Origin: a virus
Taxonomy: Duplodnaviria; Heunggongvirae; Uroviricota; Caudoviricetes
Virus record (IMG/VR): IMGVR_UViG_2802428878_000002
DNA: 64,000 bases
Reading direction: 5' to 3' (one strand)
The notes beneath the pieces were generated by a model that was not told the origin of the DNA, did not search any database, and was given only the letters and a program-made list of their open reading frames with translations. How positions within the stretch are numbered: position 1 is the stretch's first letter; the number at the start of each line of letters is the position of its first letter. A program made the position numbers and the translations under genes. This document shows, one piece after another, positions 1,452 through 18,778 of this stretch.

Positions 1452-3929
1452 TCATCTGTCCTCCGCTTCCGTGTCCCCTCGCAGCCGGATACCCGTGCCC
1501 CCGATCAACGCCATCGGACTACCGTCCGGCCTCCGGAGCCGGATACCGCCATAGGAGCGCACCTGTTCGCCTCGTCCGCCGACCCGCGCGTCCGTGTCGA
1601 TCTGGTCGCCGAACGCAGCGCGGAGCTTCTTGCTCAGACTCACCTTGGACCCTGGCGTGTGCCCGTTGTCCTGGCACCACGCCCGCCACGCCTCATACAG
1701 CCGGTCTTTTGACGCGCTCGCTTCCGGCGACAGAACGCATTTCTCATCTACAAATTGAGAAATCGGGCTAGAGCCTTCATCCAGCATGCCCAATAGGCCC
1801 GAATCAACCTCCGTGAATTTTTGATTTTTCGAGAGCCGATCTAAACCGTCCAACGCCCACAATAAAATTCCCGGTAGCTCATTTTTCAAATCCTCTAGTA
1901 GTCCGATGTCTTCCTTCTGGAAGAAAGAGTTTTTGATTTCTAGCACGATCAATCGTTTGATGATTGCCCGTGAGGCATCCGGCAGTGATGGCACCTCATT
2001 GGACATGAGCATGAGGCGAGTCGGTAATCGCATGGACACAGTGCCTTTATATTTCTCGGCTACCGAGACCTCATCCTCACCGATGATCTGAATAGCCTGC
2101 TCTACAAACTGCTTGCCGTTCGCGGCCATTCTTTCATCCGAGAACACAGCCAGGCTTTTAGTTTTCAAAGCTGCCATACCGAATGGTGACGTAAATTCCC
2201 GTGCCGTCATGCCCATATGATTATCCGCGCCTATCAGGCAGGTAATTATCTTGTCAATGGTGCCCTTACCGGAACGCGGAGGGCCAATCAACATGAGCAT
2301 TTTCTGTAGGTCAGTTCGCCCCGACAGCAGATAACCGAACCATTCCTGTAGCGCGGCGATAGAATTGATTGCTTCGGCGTCGGTTCCGAAAATCTCTGTC
2401 AGAAATCGCAGCCATCGGTGCGCTGTTTTAGGGTTTGGGCTGTAGTCGAATTCCAGTGCCAACGTATTGAAGTAGCGCGCCGTATGCGGCAGTAGCGTCC
2501 TGTCCCCTACGCTCAAAAGCCCGTTTCCACAGGCTATTACGACATCCGCGCCGGTGGCACGCGTCGAATCCAAGCCGGGGACCGCCTCGGCGTCCAACCA
2601 GCTTGGCATTGTTTTCACGTTAATTCGGGCCTTAGCTTTCAAGGCATCAATAACCCCGTCGATGCGGCTTTTATTGGGGTTCCACGGAACGCGTTTATCG
2701 CCCTTCATGTAGAAGGCGGCACCATCTAACAATTGGTATAGATATCTCCGTATTTCTTCATCGTCTAGCGGGCGGTAGCACACGCCGTCAAATCGCATCC
2801 ATTGTTTGCGCCAGTAAACGACGGGTTTTCTGGTCTCGTCATCGCCTTCATTCGCGCGAGCAAGAATCCGATCCGCCACCTTCACCGGAGAATTCGGAGA
2901 CGGCCACAGATCACGATGCGCGCGCTCCCACAGTTGTTCGGGCGTGCCGTCAGCGTCGGCAGCGGCAATAGCGTCGCGCACCATGCGATCAAATTCATCG
3001 GTATCCCCGTCGCGGGACTCACCACCAATAGCTTTGCACCACAACGCTTTTAGCTCATCGACGGCATCCTTGGCCGGAAAGCACCCGGCTTTAGCTTCTC
3101 GGGCTGCCCAGCACAGGCAATCGAACATGGACGCGTGCCGCCCACCGGCTGCCGTCTCGAAACTGGCCGTGATCGCCTCTAGAGCGTCGGCATCCTTCGC
3201 CTTGTCGTAGGTGGCGAGAAAAACTTCAGCGGCTTTAGCCCTGTCCGAATCGCTAGGGATCACAGCTGAACCTGGTGCCGCAGAGAGCTTTTCGGCTATC
3301 GCGTCGGGCAGGTAGGCGACATCGCCTCCCACAGGTGAGTAACGCCCCTCGGGACGGGCATGCTCAGTGGGAGCCGCAACGACAAAACCCGACTCGGATT
3401 TGATGTCACCAATATTTCCCGCTTTGGGCATCTTGATTGCGCCCCACGAATTACCGAACCGCTGTCCGTCACGCAGCGCGAAAAAGTAATGCCCGTGCGT
3501 CGGATCAAGGGTATCTGAGCAGCGGAAAACCGTAGAATCTAAATGCTTTTGTAGCCACGCGGGGACGCCACGTTCGGCGTGGTCGATATCGACCACCAGT
3601 AGGCCCGACTGTCCCGGCACGATGCCCACACCAGCATCAGGCCACCTGTCCCACCAGTACGCGATTTGATCTGGATCGGTCGTTGCACGGTGCTGCCATG
3701 CACCGCCGATGCGAGCGGGTGATTTCGTTCCGCGACTCACTGGAATTACGCGGATACCGGCCTGTGCGTACGCCAGCGCAGCCTCCCGGCAGTTCATGCC
3801 GGTCACATCAGGCAGAGAACGCGCCGGGGCTTGGGGTGTGGTCGCACTGCTGGTTTTGCGTCGGGTGAGTTTCTTGGTCTGGCCGTTGTCGGCGGATTGC
3901 GTTACCATGGTCCTCGGTATGCCTTTCAA
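1452..3929 (-). CDS. Bifunctional primase-polymerase: AEP-superfamily PrimPol N-terminal domain fused to a P4-family primase C-terminal / SF3-type NTPase domain
   Basis: N-terminus has the PrimPol signature (GIRVIPV...VGIVPGQSGLLVVDID). C-terminus has Walker A GPPRSGKGT and a D5_N-like region. 825 aa. Confidence 0.85.
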   Translation of the reverse strand: MKGIPRTMVTQSADNGQTKKLTRRKTSSATTPQAPARSLPDVTGMNCREAALAYAQAGIRVIPVSRGTKSPARIGGAWQHRATTDPDQIAYWWDRWPDAGVGIVPGQSGLLVVDIDHAERGVPAWLQKHLDSTVFRCSDTLDPTHGHYFFALRDGQRFGNSWGAIKMPKAGNIGDIKSESGFVVAAPTEHARPEGRYSPVGGDVAYLPDAIAEKLSAAPGSAVIPSDSDRAKAAEVFLATYDKAKDADALEAITASFETAAGGRHASMFDCLCWAAREAKAGCFPAKDAVDELKALWCKAIGGESRDGDTDEFDRMVRDAIAAADADGTPEQLWERAHRDLWPSPNSPVKVADRILARANEGDDETRKPVVYWRKQWMRFDGVCYRPLDDEEIRRYLYQLLDGAAFYMKGDKRVPWNPNKSRIDGVIDALKAKARINVKTMPSWLDAEAVPGLDSTRATGADVVIACGNGLLSVGDRTLLPHTARYFNTLALEFDYSPNPKTAHRWLRFLTEIFGTDAEAINSIAALQEWFGYLLSGRTDLQKMLMLIGPPRSGKGTIDKIITCLIGADNHMGMTAREFTSPFGMAALKTKSLAVFSDERMAANGKQFVEQAIQIIGEDEVSVAEKYKGTVSMRLPTRLMLMSNEVPSLPDASRAIIKRLIVLEIKNSFFQKEDIGLLEDLKNELPGILLWALDGLDRLSKNQKFTEVDSGLLGMLDEGSSPISQFVDEKCVLSPEASASKDRLYEAWRAWCQDNGHTPGSKVSLSKKLRAAFGDQIDTDARVGGRGEQVRSYGGIRLRRPDGSPMALIGGTGIRLRGDTEAEDR

Positions 3930-4031: not shown

Positions 4032-4721
4032 TCAGCCAGGGGTTAATCCAGTTCCCAATGAAGCCGAAATTTGATAACTGTCTACGTAGTCTCGCCAGCA
4101 CATTGAGCAGACTTTGAAAAACACAACTTTGTCCCACGGGCACGCGAACGGTATGACGTTGATATGGGTCGCAAGCATGCCTTTACATGCTGGTGACAGC
4201 GGCCAATCGCAACCGGGGCCGTCGAAGTTGTTTCCCGCGCCTGCGATTCTGGCGACCGTCTCGCGAAACATCATGTCGTAAATGCGCTGGTAGTCGCGAT
4301 ATCCCTGGATCACCCATCGGTGTTGGGGGTATCCGGCCAACACCGCGAATCCTGTGGCCGTGCGTACGTCCTGGTGCAGCTCATCCAACCCGTCACGGGC
4401 ACAGGTGTCAGCCAGTTTTTCGTAGGTTGTTTTTCCTCGGACAAGCAGGTCAAGAAAATCGCTCGGAAGTCTGCCCATATTTAGGTAGTGACCTACTGGT
4501 GGTTCACCTTCTGGCGCCGACATGAAGTATTTTCGGTTCGATTCTATTGCACGATCAACCATTGTGGGAATAATGCCCATCGGTTCACGCTTGGTGTGGA
4601 GTATGTGGGCGATTTCTGTCGCCGGATTTTCGTGCGCTTTTTGTGTCACAAATCGTTTGATATCGTCTACCTGCTTTAGGTAGCGGTCACTTGATGCGGT
4701 TAATTTTGGTACGTCGAACAT
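4032..4721 (-). CDS. hypothetical protein (229 aa)
   Basis: Long ORF in a lower-GC segment with no recognisable motif. Confidence 0.5.
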   Translation of the reverse strand: MFDVPKLTASSDRYLKQVDDIKRFVTQKAHENPATEIAHILHTKREPMGIIPTMVDRAIESNRKYFMSAPEGEPPVGHYLNMGRLPSDFLDLLVRGKTTYEKLADTCARDGLDELHQDVRTATGFAVLAGYPQHRWVIQGYRDYQRIYDMMFRETVARIAGAGNNFDGPGCDWPLSPACKGMLATHINVIPFACPWDKVVFFKVCSMCWRDYVDSYQISASLGTGLTPG

Positions 4722-4753
4722 CGGCCTGCCTTTCCAGTTGGTTTGACTATTAA

Positions 4754-5050
4754 TTATCCCGCCTGTGTCAGATGACGGTATTTCTTAGCGAGCGCCCAAG
4801 CAGCCAAGTCGTATTCAGATGCAAGCGCCGCACCACTCACCAAAGCAGTAGGAATCTCCCCCGATTCATATGCGCGGAATACTGCATTGTTTTTGAAGGG
4901 TGTTCCAAGCCTCTCATTTAGCCAGATCACACCATCGGGTTTCCGCATCGTTGGCACGACCGAAAAATTCTGTGCATCCAACCATTTTTGATCTGCGGGT
5001 AATAGCTCTACATTTCCAGTTGACACAACTGTCCCAGGATTCGCACTCAT
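4754..5050 (-). CDS. hypothetical protein (98 aa)
   Basis: ORF with plausible, non-R/S-biased composition. Confidence 0.4.
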   Translation of the reverse strand: MSANPGTVVSTGNVELLPADQKWLDAQNFSVVPTMRKPDGVIWLNERLGTPFKNNAVFRAYESGEIPTALVSGAALASEYDLAAWALAKKYRHLTQAG

Positions 5051-5405
5051 AATTAGTTTCTCATTTCTATGAGAGAAATGACCCGAAAAGCTCGGGTACT
5101 GCGGTCACCACTGACGTTACGCACAGGCCACCGCCTTTGTCTAGCAATAGGTGCAAATTAGTCCGCACAATTCTGGCGATAGCCATTACCGCAGGCCAGA
5201 GAGCCAAATAAGGAACTATTTCAATTTATATGCATTTTCCAAGGCCGGTGTGGTGCGGTATTTAGAGAAAACAAATTCGGCCTGACTTCTATTGCATTCT
5301 TCCTACAGGATATAGAAATGTTGGATGTCGCCCCGGGAAAGATTGTGGCCGCGTTTCGTCACGTGACGGCGCTGACCGGCGTGTCGCCTAGGGGCCGAAA
5401 TCCCG

Positions 5406-5505
5406 CCCAGATTCAGCGATACCTCGCACATGTCCGTTCTCACGGATGTTGGGGCATTCTCATTGAATCTGGGGTAACCGCGTGTCTTTCTCATTGAATC
5501 TGGGG
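5406..5505. repeat. Left-end transposase-binding-site-like repeats: CCCAGATTCAGCGATA at 5406-5421, and TTCTCATTGAATCTGGGG at 5457-5474 and 5488-5505
   Basis: Read directly. Two identical 18-mers lie 31 bp apart, immediately upstream of the tnsA-like gene. Confidence 0.55.
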
Positions 5506-5526
5506 CACGGTGCTTAACCTTTAGAT

Positions 5527-6267
5527 GTGCTGACGTCGGTAGTGTCGGCTTGGCCTGTTGGTGCGGGTGTCGTTGAACTGGAGTTCGACACGCGTGATGG
5601 CAGCTTGTGCCTCCCGCTAGCCCGGTGCGCGACGTTCCCGTTTGAGCTTGACTGTTTACCGGTGCGGAATTTTCCTTCGTACCGTGGTCAACGCAATTTC
5701 CCGGGTTTGTGGTGGTTTTCCCGTACTGGTATTCATGTTGGCCATGAGTCGTGGCTGGAACGTGATCAGTTGATGGCGCTGGATGCTGACCCGGACGTGA
5801 TTGGCGTTGTATCACAACCATTTTGGTTCCGTTGGGCAGATGGTGTAAGTCATGCTCCGGACTATTTCGTGCGGCGCCGGGATGGTTCAGCGCTCGTGCT
5901 CGATGTTCGCGATGATGGCCGGATCGAGGCAGCGGATCAGGAGAAATTTGACCGTTCGGCTGCTGAGTGCGCGGCAGTTGGCTGGGATTGCCGCCGGGTC
6001 GGGGTGCTTGATCCGGTGCTGCGGGCCAATCTTCGGTGGCTCTCTGGATATCGGCATCCACGCGTGTTTCGGCCTGGTTTGGCCGATGATCTGATGTCGG
6101 CGTTCGGTCGGGCTCGGCCCTTGATGGCCGGTGTATTGGCGGTGGGCACTCCCCTGGTGGTGCTGCCTGTCCTGTTTCACCTGCTCTGGCATCGCAAATT
6201 GAGCGTCGACCTTGCGGCGACAACATTGACCGATGACACGATCGTCAGTCCAAGTACAGGCTGGTGA
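5527..6267 (+). CDS. tnsA: TnsA-like endonuclease subunit of a heteromeric Tn7-like transposase
   Basis: Sits immediately upstream of the DDE transposase and is translationally coupled to it. Motifs HESWLERDQLMALDADPDVIGVVSQPF and APDYFVRRRDG...VLDVRDDG resemble the TnsA N-terminal PD-(D/E)xK endonuclease domain. Confidence 0.6.
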   Translation: MLTSVVSAWPVGAGVVELEFDTRDGSLCLPLARCATFPFELDCLPVRNFPSYRGQRNFPGLWWFSRTGIHVGHESWLERDQLMALDADPDVIGVVSQPFWFRWADGVSHAPDYFVRRRDGSALVLDVRDDGRIEAADQEKFDRSAAECAAVGWDCRRVGVLDPVLRANLRWLSGYRHPRVFRPGLADDLMSAFGRARPLMAGVLAVGTPLVVLPVLFHLLWHRKLSVDLAATTLTDDTIVSPSTGW

Positions 6268-6270
6268 GAG

Positions 6271-8349
6271 ATGAGAACGGGTGTCGTCCGTGAGGGAGAC
6301 GAAATCCGTTTATCGTCAGGGGTTTTCATGGTGGCAACGCTTTCTGGTGGTGCCGCTCGGCTCGTTGATGCGATCGGTCAACACGTTGTGATGCCGCTGC
6401 CGGAGCTGCTCGCTGACCCGGCGTTGGAGCTGGTATCGGGTTCGCGGCCGTCGTTGTGCTCTGAGGAGGCGCTTGCGGGACTACCGGAGACGGCAGTTGA
6501 GCGTGCTCGCTGGTGGGAGCGGCATATCGTGGAGATCCTGACCGGGCGGCCACCAGGGTCGGCTCCGGGAACGCGTCCACGGCCTGAGTTTGACCCAACC
6601 AGGCAGTCGCTGCGGCAGCGCGAACTGGCCAAGTTGGCTGAGCTACAGGCTGCCGGGCATGAGGTGAGCCGTAATGCGTTGCAGCGGCGCAGGTTCGCCT
6701 ACGAACGGGACGGCCTGCTGGGCGTCGTCGATGGGCGCCATAACCGGCGTCAGCCGGTGTTCGGCCGTGTCGATGAGCGGGTGGTCGCGGCGGTGCGTGA
6801 TGCGATCGACGGCGAGACTGATCTGTCGACAGGCACGGTACAGCGGTTACAGCGCAAGGTGGCCAAGGCGCTGGTGGCGGTCTATGGCCGCGATGATGCC
6901 CCGGCGATGCCGTCGCAGCCGACGTTTTATCGGCTGGTCAAACGCCTCGCAGAGGGGAGACACACGTTCGGGTCGGCGCGGACCCGCCGCTCGTTGTCCA
7001 AGCAACCCGATGGCCCATTCGGGGCGATTACGGTGGCGCGCCCGGGTGAGGTGGTCGAGATCGATTCCACGCCATTGGATGTGCGAGTCGTGCTCGATGA
7101 CGGTTTGGTTGACCGGGTGGAGCTGACCGCGATGGTCGACAACGCCACGCGCTCTATCGCCGCGGCGGTGTTGCGGCCCACTACCAAGGGGGTGGATGCG
7201 TCGTTGTTATTGGCGCGGGCGCTGACTCCTGAGCCGATGCGGCCAGGCTGGGCGGATGCGTTGCGGATGTCACGGTCGGTGCTTCCGCATCGCAGTTTGA
7301 CCAGTATCGATGAGCGGCTGGCTGATGCGGCGGCGCGGCCGGTGATCGCCCCGGAGACGATTGTGTGTGATCACGGCAAAGCCTATCTGTCGCAGACGTT
7401 TCGGCAGGCCTGTTGCACGCTGGGGATCAGTTTGCAGCCCGCGCACCCCGATACCCCGACCGACAAACCCAAGGTTGAGCGCACCTTGCAGTCGGTGGGC
7501 ACCTTGTTCGCCCAGCATGTGGCCGGATATGTGGGTTCCTCGGTGGAGCGGCGCGGCAAGCACGCTGAGCAGGGCGCCGTGTGGCCGATGGTGGAGCTGC
7601 AGGCGCTGCTGGATGAGTGGATCGTGGCGGTGTGGCAGAACCGGCCACACGAGGGTCTGCGTGATCCGGTGACGCCAGGAAAAGCGCTGACGCCCAATGA
7701 GAAATACGCTGCGCTGGTCGAGGTCGCCGGGTACGTGCCGGTGCCCTTGGGTGCTGATGACTACATCGAGCTGCTGCCTGCATGCTGGCGCACGATCAAC
7801 CAGTACGGCATCCGCGTCAATCACCGCACCTATGACGCTAAAGCACTCAACCCGTACCGCCGTCAGCATTCCGGTGTCGACGATCATGGCGGGCAGTGGG
7901 AAGTCCACTACGACCCCTACGACGTGTCGCGGATCTGGGTGCGCGATCACCACAACGAAGAAGGCTGGATTTCGGCGACCTGGACGCATCTGCGGACCTC
8001 CCCAGTGCCGTTCGGTGACGCCCTGTGGCGCCACGCTCATGCCCAGGTACGCGAAAATGGCGCCCACAAGGCCCGTGAGGCCGAGATCGCGGCGATAGCA
8101 GACGATCTGATGGACCGTGCCGCACAAGGACCTGTGGACCGCCCCAAGTCCGAACGCCGCCTGACTGGGCGCACTACAGCAGCTCTCCAAGACCGGAAGT
8201 GGCCACGACCTGCCGAGCCTGATACCCCGGAGCCTGAGGTGTGGGCGGAGGCCGCTGAGACAGACGAAGACGTAGATGACGATGTGGCGGATGTGATTCC
8301 GCTTCCGGTTTTCGATGCACGCAAGGAGGCTCAATCGTGGCGATTGTGA
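6271..8349 (+). CDS. tnsB: TnsB/TniA-like DDE transposase (Mu-transposase / rve integrase core)
   Basis: 692 aa. DDE triad context: EIDSTPLDV, IVCDHGKAY, KPKVERT. C-terminus is acidic. Confidence 0.9.
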   Translation: MRTGVVREGDEIRLSSGVFMVATLSGGAARLVDAIGQHVVMPLPELLADPALELVSGSRPSLCSEEALAGLPETAVERARWWERHIVEILTGRPPGSAPGTRPRPEFDPTRQSLRQRELAKLAELQAAGHEVSRNALQRRRFAYERDGLLGVVDGRHNRRQPVFGRVDERVVAAVRDAIDGETDLSTGTVQRLQRKVAKALVAVYGRDDAPAMPSQPTFYRLVKRLAEGRHTFGSARTRRSLSKQPDGPFGAITVARPGEVVEIDSTPLDVRVVLDDGLVDRVELTAMVDNATRSIAAAVLRPTTKGVDASLLLARALTPEPMRPGWADALRMSRSVLPHRSLTSIDERLADAAARPVIAPETIVCDHGKAYLSQTFRQACCTLGISLQPAHPDTPTDKPKVERTLQSVGTLFAQHVAGYVGSSVERRGKHAEQGAVWPMVELQALLDEWIVAVWQNRPHEGLRDPVTPGKALTPNEKYAALVEVAGYVPVPLGADDYIELLPACWRTINQYGIRVNHRTYDAKALNPYRRQHSGVDDHGGQWEVHYDPYDVSRIWVRDHHNEEGWISATWTHLRTSPVPFGDALWRHAHAQVRENGAHKAREAEIAAIADDLMDRAAQGPVDRPKSERRLTGRTTAALQDRKWPRPAEPDTPEPEVWAEAAETDEDVDDDVADVIPLPVFDARKEAQSWRL

Positions 8350-9371
8350 CCGAGTCGGAGATAGCGGCCGTCAACCAGTTAGAGGATCGTCGCCAGCCCA
8401 CCACCACGTTGGAGGGCTGGCGACGTTTCATTGAAGCCGATCCACCCGAGTTCGAGCTGCTCGATAACGCCTTCTGGGACGCCCTGGCCGACCGGGAACG
8501 CACCGCCTACAACGAAGCCCGCGTGGCCCACCACTCAGAGCTGGTGGTGGTCACCACCTCCTCCATTGAGGCGATCACCAACCAGGGCCGATTGTTAACG
8601 CTGCTCAACCAGCGCGAAATCGGTGCACGCCGGGGCCTGATCATCTCCGGCGCCGCAGCCACCGGCAAGACCACCGCCATCAAACAACTGGGCCGCTTCC
8701 ACGAACTACGCACGCGGGCACGCTTTCCCGGCGATGACAGCCGCATCCCCGTCGTCTACGTGACGGCACCGCCTAAAGGATCGCCCCGCAAGCTGGCGAT
8801 GGAATTCGCACGGTTTTTGGGCTTGCCGACCATCAACCCACGTATGAACGTCACCGACATCTCCGATGCGGTCTGCCAGGTCATGATCGATGCCCGCACC
8901 GATATCGTGGTGGTCGATGAGATCCACAACCTGAACTTGGATACTCGTGCCGGAGAAGAGCTTTCCGATCACCTGAAATACTTCACCGAGCATCTGCCGG
9001 CCACTTTCGTCTACGCTGGCATCGAGGTGGAGAAATCCGGGCTGTTCACCGGCACCCGCGGGCGCCAACTCGCCGGGCGCTGCGGGGTCATCCACACCAA
9101 CGCATTCCCCGACGCCAAAGAATGGCGCCAGCTCGTGGCAGCCATGGAAGGCACCTTGCGGCTGCATCGGCACAAACCGGGAACCCTCGTCGCCGAAGCC
9201 CGTTACCTGCATCTACGCACCCGCGGCATGATCGGCAGCCTCGCGCATCTCATCCGGGCCGCCGCGATCCAGTCCATGCTCGACGGCACCGAAAAAGTCA
9301 CCAGAGAACTCATGGACACCGTGCTCATCGACTACGCCGCCCACACCGCCGCCGCCCGCACCGCCTGCTGA
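8337..9371 (+). CDS. tnsC: TnsC/TniB-like AAA+ ATPase
   Basis: Walker A GLIISGAAATGKTT and Walker B VVVDEIHNL. Overlaps the tnsB stop. Confidence 0.85.
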   Translation: MAIVTESEIAAVNQLEDRRQPTTTLEGWRRFIEADPPEFELLDNAFWDALADRERTAYNEARVAHHSELVVVTTSSIEAITNQGRLLTLLNQREIGARRGLIISGAAATGKTTAIKQLGRFHELRTRARFPGDDSRIPVVYVTAPPKGSPRKLAMEFARFLGLPTINPRMNVTDISDAVCQVMIDARTDIVVVDEIHNLNLDTRAGEELSDHLKYFTEHLPATFVYAGIEVEKSGLFTGTRGRQLAGRCGVIHTNAFPDAKEWRQLVAAMEGTLRLHRHKPGTLVAEARYLHLRTRGMIGSLAHLIRAAAIQSMLDGTEKVTRELMDTVLIDYAAHTAAARTAC

Positions 9372-9372
9372 C

Positions 9373-10269
9373 ATGGCCCCGGTCCGCGCCTTCCCCCAAG
9401 GGCCGCAACGGCAGCTGCCGAAAACGGTGGCGCCGTTTCTCAACGAAACCGTGCTGTCATATGTCGCCAGGTTGGCCCACGCCAACCATCTGGCCACCGC
9501 CCAGCTGCGCCGCTACGTGGCCGGAACAGCCCACGGTCATCCACACCCGGATTGGCTTGCGGTGGCGGCTGGCCAGCCCGAACGGGTGCTGCGGGCACGG
9601 CTGCGGGGTTTTGCGGCCAACGAACGCACCTATCTGAACCAGACCACCAGTTTCCGGCCACTGTGCCGATTGTGCATGGCCCGCCGCGGCATTCACGAAC
9701 CCGTCTACTGCACCTTAGCGCCGCACATCACCGCATGCCAGCGCCACCAGCTCTGGATCGGGCCGCTCGTGCACACCCTGGACGACCAGAAATGCCTGCG
9801 CCACCAACCTCGCGTCCTCGCCGCGGCCCGTATCCACACTCAGCTAGTTCGCCGACACGGCGCGGCCGAAGTCCAGTCCACCGTGCGCCAAGTCCGCCAT
9901 TTCCTGAGCTACTGGGCCAATGCCGAACAATTGGCCATCAACCCATTCGAAGACAACAGTCTGTCGGCAAGTATCGCGGTGTATCCCGATCTCATTGAGA
10001 TCGCTGCGACACTGGCCATCCATCGTCAGCAGATTGCACAACATCCCATCAGGCGCCGAATCGCCTGGCCTCAGTTGCTTCTGCAGAAGATCAACGAACG
10101 CACCGGCCACGCCCACACCGACATCACCCCGATCGAACAGTGGGTGCACAATCAGCGGCTCACCGCAGCCATTCAGTCACCGACGGCAGATGGGATCAAG
10201 GACCGCGGGCAGTGCCGTCAGAACATCAGGTTCCGGACGATGAAAGACGTTCATTCCACGGCGATCTGA
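9373..10269 (+). CDS. tniQ: TniQ/TnsD-family target-selection protein
   Basis: N-terminal TniQ signature PFLNETVLSYVARLAHAN and a CxxC...C..H zinc motif. Follows tnsC directly. Confidence 0.75.
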   Translation: MAPVRAFPQGPQRQLPKTVAPFLNETVLSYVARLAHANHLATAQLRRYVAGTAHGHPHPDWLAVAAGQPERVLRARLRGFAANERTYLNQTTSFRPLCRLCMARRGIHEPVYCTLAPHITACQRHQLWIGPLVHTLDDQKCLRHQPRVLAAARIHTQLVRRHGAAEVQSTVRQVRHFLSYWANAEQLAINPFEDNSLSASIAVYPDLIEIAATLAIHRQQIAQHPIRRRIAWPQLLLQKINERTGHAHTDITPIEQWVHNQRLTAAIQSPTADGIKDRGQCRQNIRFRTMKDVHSTAI

Positions 10270-10573
10270 CCCATCAACACCGCGTTTACGCGGACCGAAT
10301 CCTATGGCTGGCTGGCGATTCGTCAGTTCAAAGGTCGGGCTCTCAGCCAAACCTAAGGGTCTGCTCGGCATGGTGAGGATCATGCACAATCCCGATGCCA
10401 GCAGAGTCACCTCGGCCGATCTTCGCCCCGGGGCGCCAACCATCGAGCACGACAGTTGGATGGTCGCCAAATCTGTGGTGTTCTGCGGCGCAGCGACCGC
10501 GATTGTCACTGCCATCGGCCTGATGGCCGAGGCATATCTGCTGTGACGTTGACTGGCGCTCAACGCGTTTGGG

Positions 10574-11383
10574 CTAGTCGCGGGCCAGCTCGTGGAGGTC
10601 TGGGTCGGGATTGTCCGTGGTGGTGGTGCGGGTCTTGCGGTATCCGAAGGCGATACCGATGACGAGGATCGCCAATAGTGCTGCCGAGGTGCCCCAGGTC
10701 CCCAGCGCTAGCCCTCCCTTGTCCAGTGGTTTGGACAGCAAGTCGCCCACGGTGGCCCCCAGGGGGCGGGTCAGGATGAATGCAGCCCAAAAGAGCAGGA
10801 CTCCGGAGATGTTGGTGAGATAGTGAGCGGCCAAGATGGTGGTCATCACGGCGGCGATTAGGGCTGCGCTGCCCCAGTAGCCCATCCCGGAGCTGTCGGC
10901 GAGGTAGTCGCCCAGGGAGGTGCCCAGGGTATTGGATAGCAGGATCGCCGCCCAGTAGAGGACTTCACCGCGCAAGGTGGTGATGTTGGCGACATCGAAA
11001 GTTTCCCGGGTCAGTTTCCAGATCGCAAACACGACAACGAGTCCGGTGATCAGAAGGACTGCGCCGGCTCCGTAGCCCAGGCCGTCGGCGGTGTCGGTGT
11101 CTGAGCCGGGGCCGCGGTTGATCAGATCGGACATGGTGGTGCCGGCGGTGCTGGTCGCGGCGATCACCGTCCAGTACAAGGCCGGATGGAACTGGCGGGC
11201 ACGCAGCTGTGCAAGAAGACTCACCACGAAGATCGCGATGAACAGGACTGAGGCTGCGGCGTAGCCCAGGCCCAAGGTTTGGGCGATCAGATCCCCGCCG
11301 GTTTCCCCGAGTGTGGTTGCGGCGATCTTCAAAACCCAGAACAGGGCTGTGACTTGGGGAAGTTTGTAATTCGATACGGCCAT
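10574..11383 (-). CDS. DUF347 / COG4705-like integral membrane protein with four tandem two-TM repeats, each carrying a conserved Trp
   Basis: Four internal repeats (LFWVLKIAATTLGETGGD; LYWTVIAATSTAG; LYWAAILLSNTLGTSLGD; LFWAAFILTRPLGATVGD) match the DUF347 repeat description. Confidence 0.7.
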   Translation of the reverse strand: MAVSNYKLPQVTALFWVLKIAATTLGETGGDLIAQTLGLGYAAASVLFIAIFVVSLLAQLRARQFHPALYWTVIAATSTAGTTMSDLINRGPGSDTDTADGLGYGAGAVLLITGLVVVFAIWKLTRETFDVANITTLRGEVLYWAAILLSNTLGTSLGDYLADSSGMGYWGSAALIAAVMTTILAAHYLTNISGVLLFWAAFILTRPLGATVGDLLSKPLDKGGLALGTWGTSAALLAILVIGIAFGYRKTRTTTTDNPDPDLHELARD

Positions 11384-11773
11384 GACCTGCCAAATCTGTT
11401 GTAGGTGTCAGCGATCTCGGCCGCACCTTAGTGGCGCGGGACTGAGGATTCGCTGAGAACCGGGGCGGTGTCGGCGCTCAGCGTTCTCACAGCGCTGCGA
11501 TGTCAACCTGATGGCATTCCCCGGGGCGATCGGCGCCCGGAGGCCAGCAGATACGCAGAAAGGCCCGATTATGACCACTGCCCGCCACGAGACAGCGATT
11601 CTGATCATCGGTGCTTTGATGTTGTTCGGTGCCGCGGCCACGGTGGCCGAGGCACAAGAGCGCGCACACGAACGTGCCGCGGTCTCGGTCAGTGAACCGG
11701 CACCAGTATTGGGTGCCGCGCATCCAGGGCTGTAAGACTGGACAGCGATCAAAGCTACACGGAAGGGCGCACG

Positions 11774-12451
11774 GTGCGGGTTCTGCTCGTTGAGGACGAA
11801 CCGCTGCTTGCCGACACGGTGACAGCCGGTCTGCGGGCCGAAGGATTTGTTGTGGTTACCGTCGGCGACGGGATCGACGGACTGTGGCAGGCCACCAACG
11901 AATCCTTCGACGTGATCGTCCTGGACATCATGTTGCCCGGGCTCAGCGGCTATGAGGTGCTCCGCAGAATGCGGGCCGCGCACGTGTGGACCCCGGTGTT
12001 GATGCTGACCGCCAAAGACGGCGACTACGACCAGACCGATGCCTTCGATTTGGGCGCCGATGACTATCTGACCAAACCGTTTTCGTTCATGGTGCTTACC
12101 GCACGCCTGCGCGCCTTGATACGCCGGGGCGCACCCAAACGTCCCGTCGTGCTCACCGCCGGCGAGATCTCACTAGATCCCACCCGCAGGGTCGTCGAAC
12201 GCGCCGGCAGCCCGGTGTCGTTGACACCGCGCGAATACGGTCTGCTCGAATACCTGTTACGTAACAAAGATGCCGCAGTCACCAAAACCGATATCCTGCA
12301 GAATGTTTGGGATAACCACTATGACGGCCCCGACAACGTCGTCGAAGTCTACGTCGGCTATCTTCGCCGCAAAATCGGCGCACACCTGATTATCACGGTC
12401 CGCGGCGTGGGCTACCGGCTTGAATCGGGCGAGTTCGCTTCCGACGGCTGA
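11774..12451 (+). CDS. OmpR/PhoB-family two-component response regulator
   Basis: Receiver domain (VEDEPLL...DVIVLDIMLPGLSG...LMLTAKD) followed by a winged-helix output domain (VEVYVGYLRRKI...RGVGYRL). Confidence 0.9.
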   Translation: MRVLLVEDEPLLADTVTAGLRAEGFVVVTVGDGIDGLWQATNESFDVIVLDIMLPGLSGYEVLRRMRAAHVWTPVLMLTAKDGDYDQTDAFDLGADDYLTKPFSFMVLTARLRALIRRGAPKRPVVLTAGEISLDPTRRVVERAGSPVSLTPREYGLLEYLLRNKDAAVTKTDILQNVWDNHYDGPDNVVEVYVGYLRRKIGAHLIITVRGVGYRLESGEFASDG

Positions 12452-12480
12452 CCACGTCCGCAGCGTTCGCCCCGCACGCG

Positions 12481-13908
12481 TTAGCGGCCTGAGTCGGCCG
12501 AGTTGACCAGCGGCAGCCGGACGGTCATCACCGTCCCACCGCCTGTACGGTCGCTGATATCTACCGTGCCCTTATGTGCGGCAACGATTTCGGCCACAAT
12601 GGCCAGACCCAGACCGCTGCCGCCGCCGTGCCGGGAACGGTCGGCATCCAGGCGCACAAACCGTTCAAACACACGCCCACGCTCGGTGACAGGGATTCCC
12701 GGACCGTCATCACAGACCTGCAGACATGTGCTGTCAGCGTCGGCACTGACCGCGATGGACACAGTAGTGCGGGCGTGCCGGGCCGCGTTGTCAGCCAGAT
12801 TACGCAGTACCCGTGCCAGCCCTAGCGCGTCTCCGGTGACTTTGACCGCCGCCAGATTCCCGGAAACCTGCAGCGACGTTTCTCGTTTAAGCCGCGCGAC
12901 TTCGGTGCTGGCCAGATCATCGAGATCGATCTCGGTGCGCCGCATCGGCAGCCCGTGCTCATCGGCTCTGGCAAGCAGCAGCAGATCTTCGACCAGGGAT
13001 TGCATTCGGTGAGCTTCGGGCAGCAAGGCCGTCTGCACGAGAGTCTTGTCGAACACCTCGGGATGGCTTTGAGCGATCTCTAAGGCCGAAATAACTGTTG
13101 CCAGTGGGCTTCTGAGCTCATGGGAGGCATCCCCGACGAACCGGCGCTGGGCGGTGTGCCCGGCTTCAATCCGTTCGAGCATCTTGTTCATCGTGGCCGC
13201 CAGCGCCGAAATCTCATCGGCGCGATCTGGCACGGGCACCCGCTCACTCAGATCGGAGGCGCTGATCTCCGAAACGCGGGAACGGATCGCATCGACCGAG
13301 CGCAGTGAGCGCCGCACCAGCAGATACGTCACCCCTGCGGCCACGACGGCCACAACAGGTGCGGTGATCGTCAGCATGGTGGCGACCGTCGAGGTCATCG
13401 ACTCGATCGGTTCAATACCGCCGCCCACCAACACCGTGTACCGGCCTTTGCGGCCATCCGCAGTCAGCGCAGCCACACGAATATCATCATCGGCAGTGGC
13501 AGAAACACCGACCTGGGAATTTCGGAAGTTATTGCCGCGCCACGATATTAGCGGCCCGTTGGGCGCCGAGTCCGAATGTCGCACGATCCGGCCTCTGGCA
13601 TCGATGACTTGGACAGCCACGATCCGCTGATCGGTGGCCAACAGCACCGACTCCAGTTCGTCAGGAGGTTCCTTCTTGAGCCGCTCGGCCACAGCCAACG
13701 CGCGCGAATTAGCCGCGTCATCAACATCGGCACACATCGACCGATACAGCAGCACCACCGATGCCGAGCCCACAACTACCAAGCTGGCCAGCACCACAAC
13801 GGCGGCCACCAGCGCCGAGCGAGTCGCGATCCCCCCACACCAGCGCCGCAAACGGGAGACCAACGCGCCAATGCGTACGCGGCCCTTCACCATCGGCTCC
13901 ACCCACAC
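12481..13908 (-). CDS. Sensor histidine kinase (two TM segments, HAMP, HisKA, HATPase_c)
   Basis: H-box FVGDASHELRSPLA, N-box LRNLADNAARHA, G-boxes DDGPGIP and GGSGLGLAIV. Convergent with the response regulator across a 30-bp gap. Confidence 0.9.
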   Translation of the reverse strand: MWVEPMVKGRVRIGALVSRLRRWCGGIATRSALVAAVVVLASLVVVGSASVVLLYRSMCADVDDAANSRALAVAERLKKEPPDELESVLLATDQRIVAVQVIDARGRIVRHSDSAPNGPLISWRGNNFRNSQVGVSATADDDIRVAALTADGRKGRYTVLVGGGIEPIESMTSTVATMLTITAPVVAVVAAGVTYLLVRRSLRSVDAIRSRVSEISASDLSERVPVPDRADEISALAATMNKMLERIEAGHTAQRRFVGDASHELRSPLATVISALEIAQSHPEVFDKTLVQTALLPEAHRMQSLVEDLLLLARADEHGLPMRRTEIDLDDLASTEVARLKRETSLQVSGNLAAVKVTGDALGLARVLRNLADNAARHARTTVSIAVSADADSTCLQVCDDGPGIPVTERGRVFERFVRLDADRSRHGGGSGLGLAIVAEIVAAHKGTVDISDRTGGGTVMTVRLPLVNSADSGR

Positions 13909-13967
13909 ATCACAGCCATTGGGTACCGCCTCACGGATGGCAACGACATCCCATAATCATTGCAGTC

Positions 13968-14429
13968 CTACGACCGCCCGGAGGCCGTCGGCGCAGGGAC
14001 AGGCGCAGCCGAGGACGGGGCGGGCGCCTGAGTACGTTCAGTACCCGGACGTACCCGCTGACCATCGCTTGACTTGCCCTCATCATCGCCGGCACGTCCG
14101 CCGTCGGCGGCCTCTCGACCTGCTCCACGCTCATCGATCTCGTCATCATCGTCGGCGTCATACCCATGCGATCGAGACTCGCTATGTCCGCGACCGTCTC
14201 GGCCATACTCATCACCAAACTCACTCCCAGCCCACACACCGGCACCGAACGTCAGACCTAGCACCGCCACCACAGCAGCTGCTGCACCAGCAATGGCCGC
14301 CGCCCGGGTAAACAGAGCCCACCTGGCTCTTTCCGGTACCCGGCCAGCATTCGGACTCAGTTCAGCGCCCTCAACATTCGCATCCTCGGGTGGTTCAGGG
14401 GACTCATTCGTGTCATCAATGTTCGACAT
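13968..14429 (-). CDS. small acidic membrane-anchored hypothetical protein upstream of the histidine kinase
   Basis: One hydrophobic segment (AAAIAGAAAAVVAVLGLTF). The opposite-strand His/Arg-rich ORF 13634-14311 was rejected. Confidence 0.4.
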   Translation of the reverse strand: MSNIDDTNESPEPPEDANVEGAELSPNAGRVPERARWALFTRAAAIAGAAAAVVAVLGLTFGAGVWAGSEFGDEYGRDGRGHSESRSHGYDADDDDEIDERGAGREAADGGRAGDDEGKSSDGQRVRPGTERTQAPAPSSAAPVPAPTASGRS

Positions 14430-14664
14430 GCCCCGACAATGCCCATCAGGCGCTGAGACTTCGCTGAGAACAAAGGCCCGTTACACCAAGCGCCAACCAC
14501 ATGACCGGCGCGTCACGTCGGCCATTGTTCGCACATACGTTCCATACTGAGAAGGCAAGAGAACAAGACGCCATGGTGCTCGGTCAGAGGAGCCCACTTA
14601 ATCGCTCCCGCCGCTCCCATAAGACCGACACGCCGCGACGATCCGTGTCGCATTCGGATGAGAC

Positions 14665-14892
14665 ATGTCTATAAAAGTAAGGAACGCAATAGGATTCAAG
14701 ATGAACCCAAAGTTTCAACGCGAGATCGACCGCGAGGTTCAAAGAAAGCTCGACAAGCTGGCCCGCAAATACGCACACCGGCCAGTCACAGAAATCGAAG
14801 CCGCCCTCAAATGCGAGGGAATCGATGAAACCCAAGCCAAAGTCCTGGCAGTAGCCATCAGCGAAGGCCGAACAATCAAGGTCGGTCAGTAA
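14665..14892 (+). CDS. small hypothetical protein (75 aa)
   Basis: ATG preceded by AAGGAA. Lies inside the transposon right-end region. Confidence 0.35.
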   Translation: MSIKVRNAIGFKMNPKFQREIDREVQRKLDKLARKYAHRPVTEIEAALKCEGIDETQAKVLAVAISEGRTIKVGQ

Positions 14893-15055
14893 CAAGACTG
14901 CGCCCGCACCCAGCCCCACCTGTGCGGTTCCCGGACCTACCCCACCGGACCGCGAAACCTGGAACCCAGGCAAACCGGGCTATCACGCTTGTGTCCACAG
15001 TTGATGAATCGCGGGATCGCGTACCGGTTTTCGCCCTGGGCAAGGCGCCGACTTA

Positions 15056-15161
15056 CCCCAGATTCAGTGAGAAAACGCCCGGATCAAATTCTCATCGAAT
15101 CTGGGGCACCGCAGGTCGGACCTCACCTCATGCCCCAGATCGGATGAGAATGGACAGCACA
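15056..15161. repeat. Right-end repeats: CCCCAGATTCAGTGAGAA (15056-15073), TTCTCATCGAATCTGGGG (15089-15106), CCCCAGATCGGATGAGAA (15133-15150), then the terminal ACA
   Basis: Read directly. These are inverted or direct copies of the left-end 18-mer. Confidence 0.55.
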
Positions 15162-15340
15162 ACCACACCTCGCCTTGGCGTATAGGTAAGGAATAGTTTC
15201 CCATCTAAATATTCGTCTGCGCAAACGCCCCTCAGCGCCGTGGGAATCGTGGATTTTCGGCGTACTCTGAGGTCAACGGAACCGCGCGTATGTTCAATTA
15301 CTCGGTGGAAAATCGTAAAAAATGATTTGAGGTTTTAAAA

Positions 15341-16459
15341 ATGGCTCGACAAGGTATTCAATCTGGCGGGGACGTACTTGTTAATTCCCTCGCAGACGGC
15401 ACAGATATTAATCTTGTCTGGGAAGAATTAATTACGGCGTTTTCGCTCTACAACGAGGAACGCACAACCATCGCGTCATTGTTGTCGTTTAAAACTACTA
15501 ACGCATCCGACGTTGTGGCACAAAGTATCGGGACCTCTTCTTTTGAGCGTGCGACAGAGCATGGTTTACCGAAGTCTGCCGGTACTCCCGCTGACGCGTT
15601 GCTTTTAGGCTACACGTTTGACGATTTCGATTTAAGAACAGCTTTTACTTGGAAATTTTTGCGCAGCGCCGACCGTCGTCAAGTTGACGCAGTAATTAAC
15701 GGCGTGATGGAGTCGGACAATAAGCTAGTCACCGGGACCATTCTTCGTCGCCTTTTCGATCCCACCGAGGGCACAAATGAATTCGGCGCGCGCGTTTTCG
15801 GTTTATATACGGGAAATGATGGAATTACGCCGCCAAATTTTCTAGGGAATCAGTTCCCCAGCAATACCAACCACTATCTGCCGACGCAGAACGCCACCAT
15901 TGATTCGCAGGACATCGAAGATGCGATGAACCTGATTCGCATCAAGGGGTACGGTCTGGATTCGTTGTCTCAGTTGCTCATCATCGCCAATCCTGTTGAA
16001 TCAGAACTGATTCAGACGTGGCGCTCCGGTAAGGAATCGCGTTCGGGTGGCCCAACCGCGAAACACGATTTCATCCCGTCCGTGAAAGCCCCGCCCTATC
16101 TCCAGCCTGAAAACATTGTGGGACAACCTATTTCGGGTGATTACTACGGTCGTGAGGTACTTGGGAGCTACGGCCCCGCCTGGCTGCTCGAAACCTCCTT
16201 CGTGCCTGCCGGTTACGTCGCAGTCGTCGCTTCCGGTGGACCGAACTCCGAGCGCAACGTAGTTGGTATGCGTGAGCTGCCGAACACCGCGTACCAGGGG
16301 TTGCGGACCATCCCCGGTAATTTTGCCGGCTATCCGCTCATTGACGCCTTCTACCAGCGCTCATTCGGCGTAGGTGTGCGCCAGCGTGGCGCAGCGGTGT
16401 GTTTGCAGGTCACCGCTGGCAGCACCTACACTGCGCCAACCGCGCTCATTCCGGTGTAG
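15341..16459 (+). CDS. hypothetical protein (372 aa); possibly a phage-type structural (capsid-like) protein
   Basis: Lower-GC gene with ATG preceded by GAGG. Composition is mixed alpha/beta, with no enzymatic motifs. The structural assignment is only an impression. Confidence 0.5.
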   Translation: MARQGIQSGGDVLVNSLADGTDINLVWEELITAFSLYNEERTTIASLLSFKTTNASDVVAQSIGTSSFERATEHGLPKSAGTPADALLLGYTFDDFDLRTAFTWKFLRSADRRQVDAVINGVMESDNKLVTGTILRRLFDPTEGTNEFGARVFGLYTGNDGITPPNFLGNQFPSNTNHYLPTQNATIDSQDIEDAMNLIRIKGYGLDSLSQLLIIANPVESELIQTWRSGKESRSGGPTAKHDFIPSVKAPPYLQPENIVGQPISGDYYGREVLGSYGPAWLLETSFVPAGYVAVVASGGPNSERNVVGMRELPNTAYQGLRTIPGNFAGYPLIDAFYQRSFGVGVRQRGAAVCLQVTAGSTYTAPTALIPV

Positions 16460-17596: not shown

Positions 17597-18778
17597 CTAT
17601 TCACCCGGATATTTCACGTGTACAAATTCGACTTGTGCAGGTCCGCCCCAGAAATCGTCGGTATTCGGCCACCAATCATCGTGAACATTCCTCGGGTCGG
17701 CATGTTGATCAACCACATCGACACCGTTCATATTGCCCACGTACATTGCAACGTGATCAATTTTCCCCTCGTTGGTTCTGTAGTAAATCAAATCGCCTGG
17801 AGTCAAGCCAGCCTTAGAGGGGGCCAGCGGGTCATACCCGGTTGGCCCGGAAGTGGGGACAACGCCTTTTGTTTCTCCAAGTCCTGAATGCTGAGTGAAA
17901 TAGTCGTGGTTCGCGGCCGCGTTGTACCAAGTCTCAGACTCAACATTTTTGGGATTTAATGTGTTGTTATTGTAGTACCAATCATCAGGGTCGCCGTGAT
18001 GCCAATCGTCCAAGCCGTCCCCAACGTCTTTAAATCCACCGGCCCTCAACGCTTGCGAAACGAAATTCGTGCAATCTTGTTCATATTGCCGATAATCGCC
18101 GTTATAGCCATCGGCGAAAGCCTCGGCATAAATGATTGCCTTTTTTCGTTCTTCCGATAACCCCGGAGGAAATTGCAAACCGCCCGGAACTCTATCTCTT
18201 GAAAATCCGTCGTTACCTAACATTTGCGCGCCGCCCCGACTGAGCTTACGACCCTGCAACCCCGCAGCCTCGCCTTGGAGTTCACCCGCCACCTTGGCAG
18301 CAGTAGATGCCAAACCCTTTGCGTGCCAACGCATAAACTCGGTGAGTTGTTGAGCCTCGGCCTTGCGTGTGGCGCGCTGGCTATCCGATCCGCCCTGGTG
18401 GGTGTCGGTGGCCAGCAAGTCCTCGGAGACGGTATACCCTTTGCCCTCGGCCTCCTGTATGGCGTTCACCGTGGCTTCTTTGGCTCCCCGGATTTCCCCG
18501 GCCCCACGGCGGGCGATGGACGCGCATTCCCGATAGATCGACGCCTGTACCCGCACTGTGTCTTGCGCCTCGCGCGCGTCGTCATACGCCGACGTGGCAG
18601 CCTTGCCGGTCCAATCAGTGCCACCCGGTGCGGAAATGTTCGCTACATGCTGCGAAAAGGCCGTTTCGGATTGTCCTGCGGCCTTTTCCCATTGCGTAGC
18701 CGCGTCATCTAAATGTGTTGTGGACCAATTCAATATCTCAGACTTTGTCGGCATGGAGGCCGGAGCGATAGCCGCCAT
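17597..18778 (-). CDS. Putative secreted cell-wall amidase: WXG-like N-terminal helical domain fused to a PF12671-like putative amidase domain
   Basis: N-terminus contains GTDWTGKAATSAYDDA (a WxG motif). C-terminus contains CTNFVSQALRAGGF...WYNAAANHDYF...IDHVAMYVG (Cys-His amidase motifs). Confidence 0.65.
   Translation of the reverse strand: MAAIAPASMPTKSEILNWSTTHLDDAATQWEKAAGQSETAFSQHVANISAPGGTDWTGKAATSAYDDAREAQDTVRVQASIYRECASIARRGAGEIRGAKEATVNAIQEAEGKGYTVSEDLLATDTHQGGSDSQRATRKAEAQQLTEFMRWHAKGLASTAAKVAGELQGEAAGLQGRKLSRGGAQMLGNDGFSRDRVPGGLQFPPGLSEERKKAIIYAEAFADGYNGDYRQYEQDCTNFVSQALRAGGFKDVGDGLDDWHHGDPDDWYYNNNTLNPKNVESETWYNAAANHDYFTQHSGLGETKGVVPTSGPTGYDPLAPSKAGLTPGDLIYYRTNEGKIDHVAMYVGNMNGVDVVDQHADPRNVHDDWWPNTDDFWGGPAQVEFVHVKYPGE

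Follow-up and report, generated by a model that had tools for sequence, protein, structure and literature searches.

The transposon and its transposition genes

The DNA analysed here is a 64,000-nucleotide stretch of a Caudoviricetes genome (IMG/VR record IMGVR_UViG_2802428878_000002), referred to below as the window, and it harbored a Tn7-like transposon of 9726 bp at positions 5431-15156. The assemblies read for comparison were NCBI records, whose sources assign the proteins of the element to Mycobacteroides abscessus. The transposon started with TGTCC at 5431 and ended with GGACA at 15156, as read from the sequence, and its TGT...ACA termini belonged to terminal inverted repeats of about 27 nucleotides (nt), TGTCC[G/A]TTCTCA...GGGGCAT. 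It was enclosed by two copies of GCACA (5426-5430, likewise read from the sequence, and 15157-15161), a target-site duplication that is represented by a single copy in the empty site described below. The G+C content of the element was 62-66%, whereas that of its flanks was 49-55%.

The tnsA-proximal or "right" end (5431-5508, plus strand) contained the terminal TGTCCGTT and three directly oriented repeats of 18-21 nt, located at 5437 (degenerate), 5457, and 5488, which are presumed to be TnsB-binding sites. The tnsA-distal or "left" end (15053-15156, minus strand) contained inward repeats at 15133-15150 (terminal) and 15056-15073, a repeat of opposite orientation at 15089-15106, and the terminus ...GAGAATGGACA. 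The 18-nt repeat TTCTCATYGAATCTGGGG occurred five times at no more than three mismatches, compared with 0.07 expected occurrences: at 5457 and 5488 on the plus strand, at 15056 and 15133 on the minus strand, and at 15089 on the plus strand, flipped relative to its neighbors. Together with the degenerate terminal copy at 5437, there were three repeat sites per end, which agrees with the clusters of an approximately 18-bp repeat that an initial annotation, made from the sequence alone, had described as bounding the element. The same annotation had placed the element at 5406-15161, which located it correctly but exceeded its true limits by 25 bp of target DNA at the left and by the 5-bp duplication at the right. 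The three-site layout of the left end, including the flipped middle repeat, was also found in the related elements of loci L012 and L013, and 5-bp duplications were also found in sister elements. TGT...ACA termini, multiple internal repeats at each end, and a 5-bp target duplication are hallmarks of Tn7-like elements. A further sequence, CCGCCCAGATTCAGCGA, which resembles the inverse of the end repeat (CCCCAGATTCAGTGAGAA), was located at 5404-5419, 12 bp outside the element. It was already present in the empty site and was therefore not made by the insertion; it may be the left-end relic of an earlier related element or a chance occurrence.

Four genes for transposition proteins, all on the plus strand, followed the tnsA-proximal end. 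The first (5527-6267) encodes a TnsA-like protein of 246 amino acids (aa) with an endonuclease fold and a C-terminal winged-helix-like domain. It matched NCBIfam NF033179 ("TnsA-like heteromeric transposase endonuclease subunit") with 277 bits, at a cut-off of 110. A Pfam scan of this open reading frame (ORF) alone gave no match, and searching PDB sequences, whether with the ORF or with the profile of its family, returned nothing beyond noise. The family included 2164 homologues, and Pfam TnsA_N was matched by 18 of 30 aligned members. An AlphaFold (AF2) model had a predicted local distance difference test (pLDDT) value of 88, and in a Foldseek comparison with the PDB its top four matches were Tn7 TnsA (E-values of 1e-7 to 2e-6, probability 1.0), covering both domains. 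The TnsA identity is therefore settled by the NCBIfam match and the fold comparison. The residues E78, D112, D126, and R128 were invariant among the 30 aligned members. The catalytic reference residues of Tn7 TnsA are E63, D114, and K132, and the position at which the lysine would be expected, judged by motif spacing, was occupied by an arginine (D126-V-R128) in 30/30 members. Aligning the family profile with a Tn7 TnsA sequence (hhalign) covered only 29 C-terminal columns at a probability of 2.8%. Thus, from sequence comparison, the catalytic lysine appears to have been replaced by a conserved arginine, giving D-V-R for the Q-V-K of Tn7.

The second gene, tnsB (6271-8349, 692 aa), encodes a protein with a DDE/RNase-H-fold transposase region and a Mu-transposase C-terminal domain. 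Pfam PF09299 (Mu-transpos_C) was matched above threshold (E = 1e-8) and rve weakly, below threshold, and the best PDB sequence matches were the TnsB proteins of Tn6677 (E = 2e-9) and ShCAST. TnsB is thus predicted to be a DDE transposase of the Mu/retroviral-integrase type. It overlapped by 13 nt with tnsC/tniB (8337-9371, 344 aa), which encodes a short AAA+ regulator matching Pfam TniB (E = 9e-17) and AAA_22, as well as the PDB entries of ShCAST TnsC (E = 2.5e-7) and VchTnsC. The fourth gene, tniQ (9373-10269, 298 aa), encodes a protein with an N-terminal TniQ domain, a C-terminal helical domain, and the invariant residues C98, C101, C122, and H125. It is the presumed target selector, and a selector with a TniQ domain is a feature of Tn7-like elements. 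Foldseek comparison of the TniQ model with the PDB yielded nothing below E = 1, and the TniQ family profile had no match among PDB sequences.

The combination of NCBIfam, Pfam, and fold evidence bore out the TnsA-like, TnsB, TnsC, and TniQ genes, in Tn7 order, of the initial annotation. Of the hidden Markov models that it had named for checking them (TnsA_N, rve, TniB, and TniQ), TniB was clearly matched, but rve and TniQ remained below threshold and the TnsA-like ORF had no Pfam match. Its statement that no CRISPR partner accompanies TniQ also held, as no cas domain was detected in any ORF of the element and no CRISPR array was present; the only tandem repeat was a 31-bp stretch inside tnsC. 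A resolvase domain was likewise not matched in any ORF of the element. An antisense ORF (5303-6226, minus strand, 307 aa) lies opposite tnsA and extends into the flank. It had no domain match, was called with differing lengths at each insertion site, and is almost certainly a high-G+C artefact. Other long ORFs overlapping tnsB were dismissed as artefacts of the same kind.

Seven fetched copies of the element were 100% identical over 9726 bp, and the identity broke exactly at the positions corresponding to 5431 and 15156. At four sites both flanks were recovered, each with its own 5-bp duplication (GCACA, CTTGG, GCAAT, and ATGGG). Four of the identical copies (L002, L003, L007, and L008) were located within about 30 bp of one another in a single chromosomal intergenic region and had one orientation, and another (L005) was located 256 bp further along the same region. 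An exact-protein look-up listed the TnsB protein in 288 blocks of the assembly collection; the element is therefore common and moves among prophages, plasmid-like DNA, and the chromosome terminus. The empty site came from M. abscessus isolate GCA_900141315.1 (L233), identified by exact look-up of the neighboring capsid protein. This isolate carried the same prophage without the element, and window positions 4401-5430 joined to 15162-16200, with one GCACA, matched it at 2069/2069 positions. BLAST searches of the reconstructed empty site and its flanks against plasmid and phage collections gave no match. The initial annotation had proposed to search for the element at other loci with exact ends and 5-bp duplications and to compare the empty site in relatives, and both checks gave positive results.

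Identical copies at different sites with different 5-bp duplications indicate a mobile element and not a remnant, and the exact ends, the duplication, and the empty site together define the element and indicate that it was recently mobile. It is virtually certain that this is an active Tn7-like transposon, and the copy in the window is a complete, recently active 9.7-kb element of M. abscessus that carries a two-component sensor module. In one copy (L007, GCA_900139215.1, positions 9161 and 18886), the two flanks were mismatched, with the left one (...TTGGC) belonging to an ESX/WXG100 region and the right one (TTTGG...) to the chromosomal hot spot beside dif. Possible causes are cointegrate formation, recombination of one copy with another, and a short-read misjoin spanning the 9.7-kb repeat; similar end exchanges have been reported for Tn7706 (PMC12915292). 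In L024 (9802-9903), the right end was tandemly duplicated around an N, which looks like a scaffolding artefact at a repeated element.

The candidate target palindrome and the chromosomal dif locus

A palindrome, CGTCACGTGACG, was located at 5357-5368, outside the element and 62 bp from its tnsA-proximal end, and it is a candidate recognition site. It was present before the insertion, as the empty site also contained it. The pattern CGTCA-N2-3-TGACG had only two matches in the window, and it was found 47-103 bp outside the tnsA-proximal end at every site of the identical element. The set of flanks was extended with species-representative genomes, three M. abscessus sister elements, an element on a plasmid of the M. 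avium complex, and another relative in M. intracellulare. Among the 42 unique tnsA-proximal flanks, 27 contained the palindrome, 21 in the strict form CGTCAC-N0-1-GTGACG and six in a relaxed form with one or two mismatches. In these flanks the palindrome was located 35-103 bp outside the end, with a median of 57 bp and half of the values at 53-67 bp. By contrast, none of the 12 tnsA-distal flanks contained it in the same range (Fisher p = 5e-5). The binomial probability of such proximity against the local background was 1.6e-52, and 1.1 Mb of loci of this transposon family from outside the mycobacteria contained no strict palindrome.

The tnsA-proximal end faced the palindrome at 7/7 sites of the element of the window and at 2/2 sites of its closest relative. 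Furthermore, one chromosomal palindrome had received insertions on both sides (L100-102 versus L002/L003), each with the tnsA-proximal end inward, as a two-fold symmetric recognition site predicts. The core of 12-13 nt was the same at about 15 unrelated loci, whereas the outer arms and flanks differed; the flanking DNA was A/T-rich and itself roughly palindromic. Insertion was thus orientation-specific and offset from a recognised sequence, as in Tn7-like elements, and TniQ is the putative recognising protein. The initial annotation had predicted a dedicated attachment site addressed through TniQ. Directed insertion does appear to take place, but toward a reiterated palindrome instead of one unique site.

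Several other observations concern the palindrome. The second match in the window, CGTCAAGTTGACG (15677-15689), was located inside the major-capsid gene, 520 bp past the distal end, and the two palindromes are approximately 590 bp apart in the empty site. Paired palindromes were also observed in the chromosomal hot spot (287 bp apart), L013, and L021. On an M. chimaera plasmid (L230, 5066-5102) the core was part of a 37-nt perfect palindrome, and on an M. avium plasmid (L231, 5082-5094), as well as in L022, it came right after the stop codon of a RelE/ParE toxin gene. At least 120 stretches of viral contigs matched the palindrome in a scan and were taken as mostly chance matches. A full-text literature search for the palindrome returned only papers on eukaryotic oestrogen- and antioxidant-response elements. 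None of the parS, matS, CRP, and LexA-type operators is known to fit its half-site order and spacing.

In the chromosomal hot spot, the first palindrome was separated by 272 bp from a 28-bp sequence, AACGCCGATAAGACACATTATGTCAGTT, that fits the consensus of actinobacterial dif, for which CACGCCGATAATGCACATTATGTCAAGT has been published (PMC3025954). The locus lies at about 2.6 Mb of chromosomes of 5.0-5.25 Mb, i.e., at approximately 51% of complete chromosomes, and the 28-bp sequence is predicted to be the chromosomal dif site (XerC arm, 6-bp spacer, and XerD arm) at the terminus. In M. abscessus, L103, L012, L013, L021, L023, and L024, sites resembling GCCGATAA-N6-TTATGTCAAGT, which likewise agree with the published dif, were separated from the palindrome by 255-320 bp. 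The layout was shared by these seven mycobacterial species or loci and consisted of dif, 255-320 bp of unconserved DNA on the XerC-arm side, and then the palindrome. A dif-like site was present within the fetched 20 kb in 9/80 species loci (p of about 1e-11). Neither the window prophage nor plasmid pJCM15296 (L001), both of which have the palindrome, contained a dif-like core in the 26-64 kb covered. The distance from insertion to dif ranged from about 330 to more than 1500 bp, whereas the distance to the palindrome had an interquartile range of approximately 53-67 bp; the palindrome, and not dif, was therefore taken as the determinant. An Rfam search of the dif-palindrome region gave nothing at E <= 1.

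Other mobile DNA was also present around dif. In an M. abscessus chromosome (L003, 8640-8730), the left end of another Tn7-like element, with repeats CCGCCAGATTCACTGAGAA... and the terminus ...CGAGACAGGACA, was located approximately 45 bp from the XerD arm, so that several Tn7-like elements are arranged in tandem around dif. This other element may have as its cargo the upstream genes for type I restriction-modification and a KAP NTPase. In L002 (1011-8860), a 7.85-kb island encoding a tyrosine integrase and HTH_26 and AAA_16 proteins was located immediately beside dif, where it replaced 37 bp, and the palindrome of the island (at 1318) recreated the arrangement of dif, 307 bp, and palindrome. 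In a metagenome-assembled genome of Mycobacteriales (L058, 3481-3560), the tnsA-proximal end of a related element was approximately 50 bp from a near-perfect dif, GGCCGATAATGTACATTATGTAAAGT, and in M. franklinii (L028, 9824-9878) a degenerate dif-like sequence was located approximately 30 bp from the end of the element. Some relatives may read dif itself.

Taken together, these results suggest that the window contains an active Tn7-like transposon and that the palindrome directs its insertion, a reading to which a probability of about 70% is assigned. Several points weigh against it. Many of the 27 sites share the same two chromosomal palindromes, which leaves about 15 strict and six relaxed independent targets, and the p-values therefore overstate independence. 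Fifteen of the 42 tnsA-proximal flanks had no palindrome within 130 bp. Among these, L108 and L109, copies of the most divergent of the sister elements in M. abscessus (56% identity in TnsA), were located at the usual positions but in the opposite orientation. The spacing of 35-103 bp is broad compared with that of Tn7 at attTn7, and the association between TniQ and the palindrome is correlative and confounded with taxonomy. In addition, TniQ matched its Pfam model with an E-value of only 4e-4, under the gathering score, and the arginine found in place of the catalytic lysine leaves the activity of the TnsA-like protein uncertain.

Whether the palindrome is read directly by TniQ itself is an evenly balanced question. 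In the mechanism proposed from the established biochemistry of Tn7 and of CRISPR-associated transposons (CAST), TnsB would bind the three repeats at each end and join the 3' ends to target DNA 5 bp apart, and the TnsA-like protein would cut the 5' strands; if its arginine-containing site were inactive, transposition would proceed through cointegrates. The palindrome would be marked by TniQ, which could sit on the two-fold symmetric site as a dimer or dock on a protein bound there. The short TnsC would then assemble beside TniQ, bridge to the transposase, and set the orientation and the offset of approximately 57 bp. As the palindrome is found near dif and also on plasmids and prophages, one selector could provide both a harmless chromosomal site and mobile vehicles.

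The main rival explanation is indirect targeting, in which TniQ and TnsC recognise not the DNA but a host or mobile-element protein bound to the palindrome, for example a terminus or dimer-resolution accessory factor, a partition protein, or a repressor. Tn5053 is a "res-site hunter", and its insertions reportedly spread near res sites with a mostly fixed orientation; the spread of about 70 bp and the mostly fixed orientation observed here resemble that behavior. In seven species the palindrome keeps a set spacing to dif even though the DNA between them is unconserved, and it also occurs near plasmid ParA/ParB and toxin-antitoxin genes, before an integrase gene (L002, 1318), and in the prophage. 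Its conservation and its recurrence on plasmids, prophage, and island suggest that the palindrome has a function of its own. However, no candidate binding protein emerged, targets in such different replicons and species would need a partner protein that is universally present, and small TniQ proteins with zinc-ribbon and helical domains bind DNA directly in characterised systems. Indirect targeting is considered rather unlikely. A broader proposal is that the palindrome functions in mycobacteria as a cis-element not described so far, maintained on the XerC-arm side at 255-320 bp from dif and carried also by plasmids and prophages, that a protein of the terminus, of dimer resolution, or of maintenance likely binds it, and that a whole clade of Tn7-like transposons reads it from either side through a small TniQ; this proposal is tentative and more doubtful than not.

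A purely regional or structural preference (for the terminus and dif, for hairpins or terminators, or for A/T-rich DNA), with the palindrome as its mark and no sequence-specific selector, is less likely and appears improbable. The hot spot beside dif does gather the integrase island and other Tn7-like elements, some palindromes extend to long hairpins (the 37-nt perfect palindrome of L230 and the long arms of L021), a relative in Nonomuraea is inserted approximately 45 bp past an unrelated terminator hairpin, and the Mycobacteriales relative in L058 lies close to dif itself. Nevertheless, it is the core that stays constant at unrelated loci while arms and flanks vary, the targets of the window and L001 have the palindrome in the absence of a dif-like core, the distance to the palindrome is tight and that to dif variable, and the distal-end control was negative (0/12). 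The palindrome was also considered as the att core of dif-adjacent integrase islands, since the island of L002 has one 50 bp before its int gene, but the islands of L093-L098 lack it. Lastly, the alternative raised in the initial annotation, namely a decayed, immobile tniABQ remnant whose first ORF has no TnsA homology and whose repeats are absent from other copies, might draw on the missing Pfam match of the TnsA-like ORF, the low TniQ score, and the lysine-to-arginine replacement, but it is excluded for practical purposes by the NF033179 membership and Tn7 TnsA fold of that ORF, by the ends and 5-bp duplications that recur at many loci, by 100%-identical copies at at least seven sites with different duplications together with the exact empty site, by four intact genes in successive abutting or overlapping frames, and by an arginine whose invariance in 30 diverse members indicates selection and not decay.

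Cargo, prophage context, and implications

The remainder of the element was occupied by a self-contained signaling module, consisting of a DUF347 protein, an OmpR-type regulator, a kinase, and small membrane proteins. A membrane protein with four DUF347 repeats (10574-11383, minus strand) matched Pfam PF03988 (E = 8e-57). It was followed by an OmpR/PhoB-type response regulator (11774-12451, plus strand, 225 aa; Pfam Response_reg and Trans_reg_C) and a convergent sensor histidine kinase (12481-13908, minus strand; Pfam HAMP, HisKA, and HATPase_c), the start of which was placed by gene callers at 13893 (470 aa). An acidic protein of 153 aa with one predicted membrane segment (13968-14429, minus strand) is encoded upstream of and co-directionally with the kinase and had no Pfam or NCBIfam match. 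All of the sensory components listed in the initial annotation, down to the small acidic membrane protein, were therefore present. Three small ORFs, all on the plus strand and with no Pfam match, were also gene-called in other copies: an 80-aa ORF (10304-10546), called in all copies; a 54-aa ORF that closely precedes the regulator and has one hydrophobic segment (11571-11735, corresponding to 15301-15465 of L002); and a 63-aa ORF (14701-14892, extendable to 14665).

The best NCBIfam subfamilies of the regulator (TIGR01387, 193 bits) and the kinase (TIGR01386, heavy-metal sensor kinase, 211 bits) were both of the heavy-metal CopS/CopR type, each below its cut-off. The combination of DUF347 protein, regulator, and kinase also adjoins a zinc permease on an M. 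rufum plasmid, and for Frankia it has been suggested that DUF347 transports metal (PMC4531530). The cargo of sister elements included metal-resistance genes, such as those for ArsR/SmtB regulators, P-type ATPases, arsM, CcdA, TlpA, and sulfocyanin. A role of the module as an envelope or metal-stress sensor is plausible, although this is a weak inference.

The element was inserted in a prophage, 185 bp upstream of the major-capsid gene. The phage- or plasmid-like neighbor mentioned in the initial annotation (15341-16459) is this gene and encodes a phage major head protein (PHROG 3990, E = 2e-94). The transposon may disturb capsid-gene expression. The local DNA was prophage of 50-55% G+C in a high-G+C host, and the whole window (1-64000) was prophage-like with 50-60% G+C (e.g., 1452-3929, 15341-16459, 17597-18778, and 44175-46970). 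Apart from the major head protein, the prophage encoded a Prim-Pol/D5 primase-helicase, an NlpC/P60 amidase, FtsK-like ATPases, DNA polymerase A, and a helicase.

M. abscessus is a pathogen that is difficult to treat, and the signaling module carried by the element could alter stress or metal responses. Exact ends, an empty site, and a candidate target with a preferred offset are now available for this element. The palindrome beside dif in several species may reflect terminus biology, and if it is a cis-element, these transposons would point to unstudied biology of the mycobacterial chromosome terminus. If targeting operates as proposed, the four genes would form a compact system for site-specific, guide-free integration in mycobacteria, and integration by four proteins approximately 57 bp from a 13-bp motif would be a useful tool for mycobacterial genetics.

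Comparison with known transposition systems

The element of the window resembles Tn7 of E. coli, which encodes TnsABC and TnsD and inserts at attTn7 downstream of glmS, in several respects. Each has a heteromeric transposase of TnsA and TnsB, an AAA+ TnsC, and a TniQ-domain selector, encoded beside the right end in the order A-B-C-selector. Their termini read TGT...ACA, each end contains several repeats of the TnsB type, the target duplication measures 5 bp, and both insert with the right end toward the recognised sequence and tens of bp away from it. On the other hand, D-V-R of the TnsA-like protein replaces Q-V-K (by motif spacing only), TnsC has 344 aa compared with 555 aa in Tn7, the selector is a 298-aa TniQ instead of a TnsD of approximately 500 aa, and TnsE is lacking. 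The target is a short palindrome present at multiple loci and used from two sides, whereas that of Tn7 is one site inside a conserved gene. Spacing is also looser, and one left-end repeat is flipped.

The closest known group is an Actinobacteria-dominated Tn7-like clade that shares the family (NF033179, "TnsA_like_Actin") and gene set and includes Tn7706 of Rhodococcus erythropolis (PMC12915292). Like the present element, its members are multicopy and occur on plasmids and chromosomes of Actinomycetota, and at least 549 related loci were found in species-representative genomes. No member of this clade had been experimentally characterised according to Benler et al. (2021; PMC8649781), and no description of the M. 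abscessus element, its two-component cargo, or the target determinant of the clade was found in the literature.

With Tn5053/Tn402 (TniA-TniB-TniQ-TniR) the element shares the 5-bp duplication, a small TniQ, and a short ATPase of the TniB type, as well as scattered insertions beside a protein-binding recombination or maintenance site of plasmids, a behavior that suits spread on mobile elements. The Tn5053/Tn402 family lacks TnsA and carries the serine resolvase TniR and an internal res site. The present element differs from these transposons by its TnsA-like gene, by the absence of a resolvase and a res site, and by targets that include a chromosomal locus beside dif. In contrast to ShCAST (type V-K), it has no Cas12k, CRISPR array, or guide RNA, and it contains a TnsA-like protein, which type V-K systems lack.

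Precedents for the proposed targeting exist. Cyanobacterial Tn7-like elements that target CRISPR repeats (PMC11837452) are a precedent for homing to a short, reiterated, and often palindromic sequence, and insertion sequences of the IS1202 family that target dif/pdif, as cited in PMC11014353, provide a precedent for homing to the neighborhood of dif. Hosts, proteins, and target sequences differ in both cases; the element of the window has CGTCAC-N0-1-GTGACG as its target core and does not insert at dif itself. As a transposon it is of an ordinary kind, and its family is already curated. Its variant features are the invariant arginine of TnsA at the expected place of the catalytic lysine, a short TnsC combined with TnsA, a flipped left-end repeat that is conserved in relatives, and targeting of a reiterated palindrome that is conserved near dif and also carried by mobile elements.

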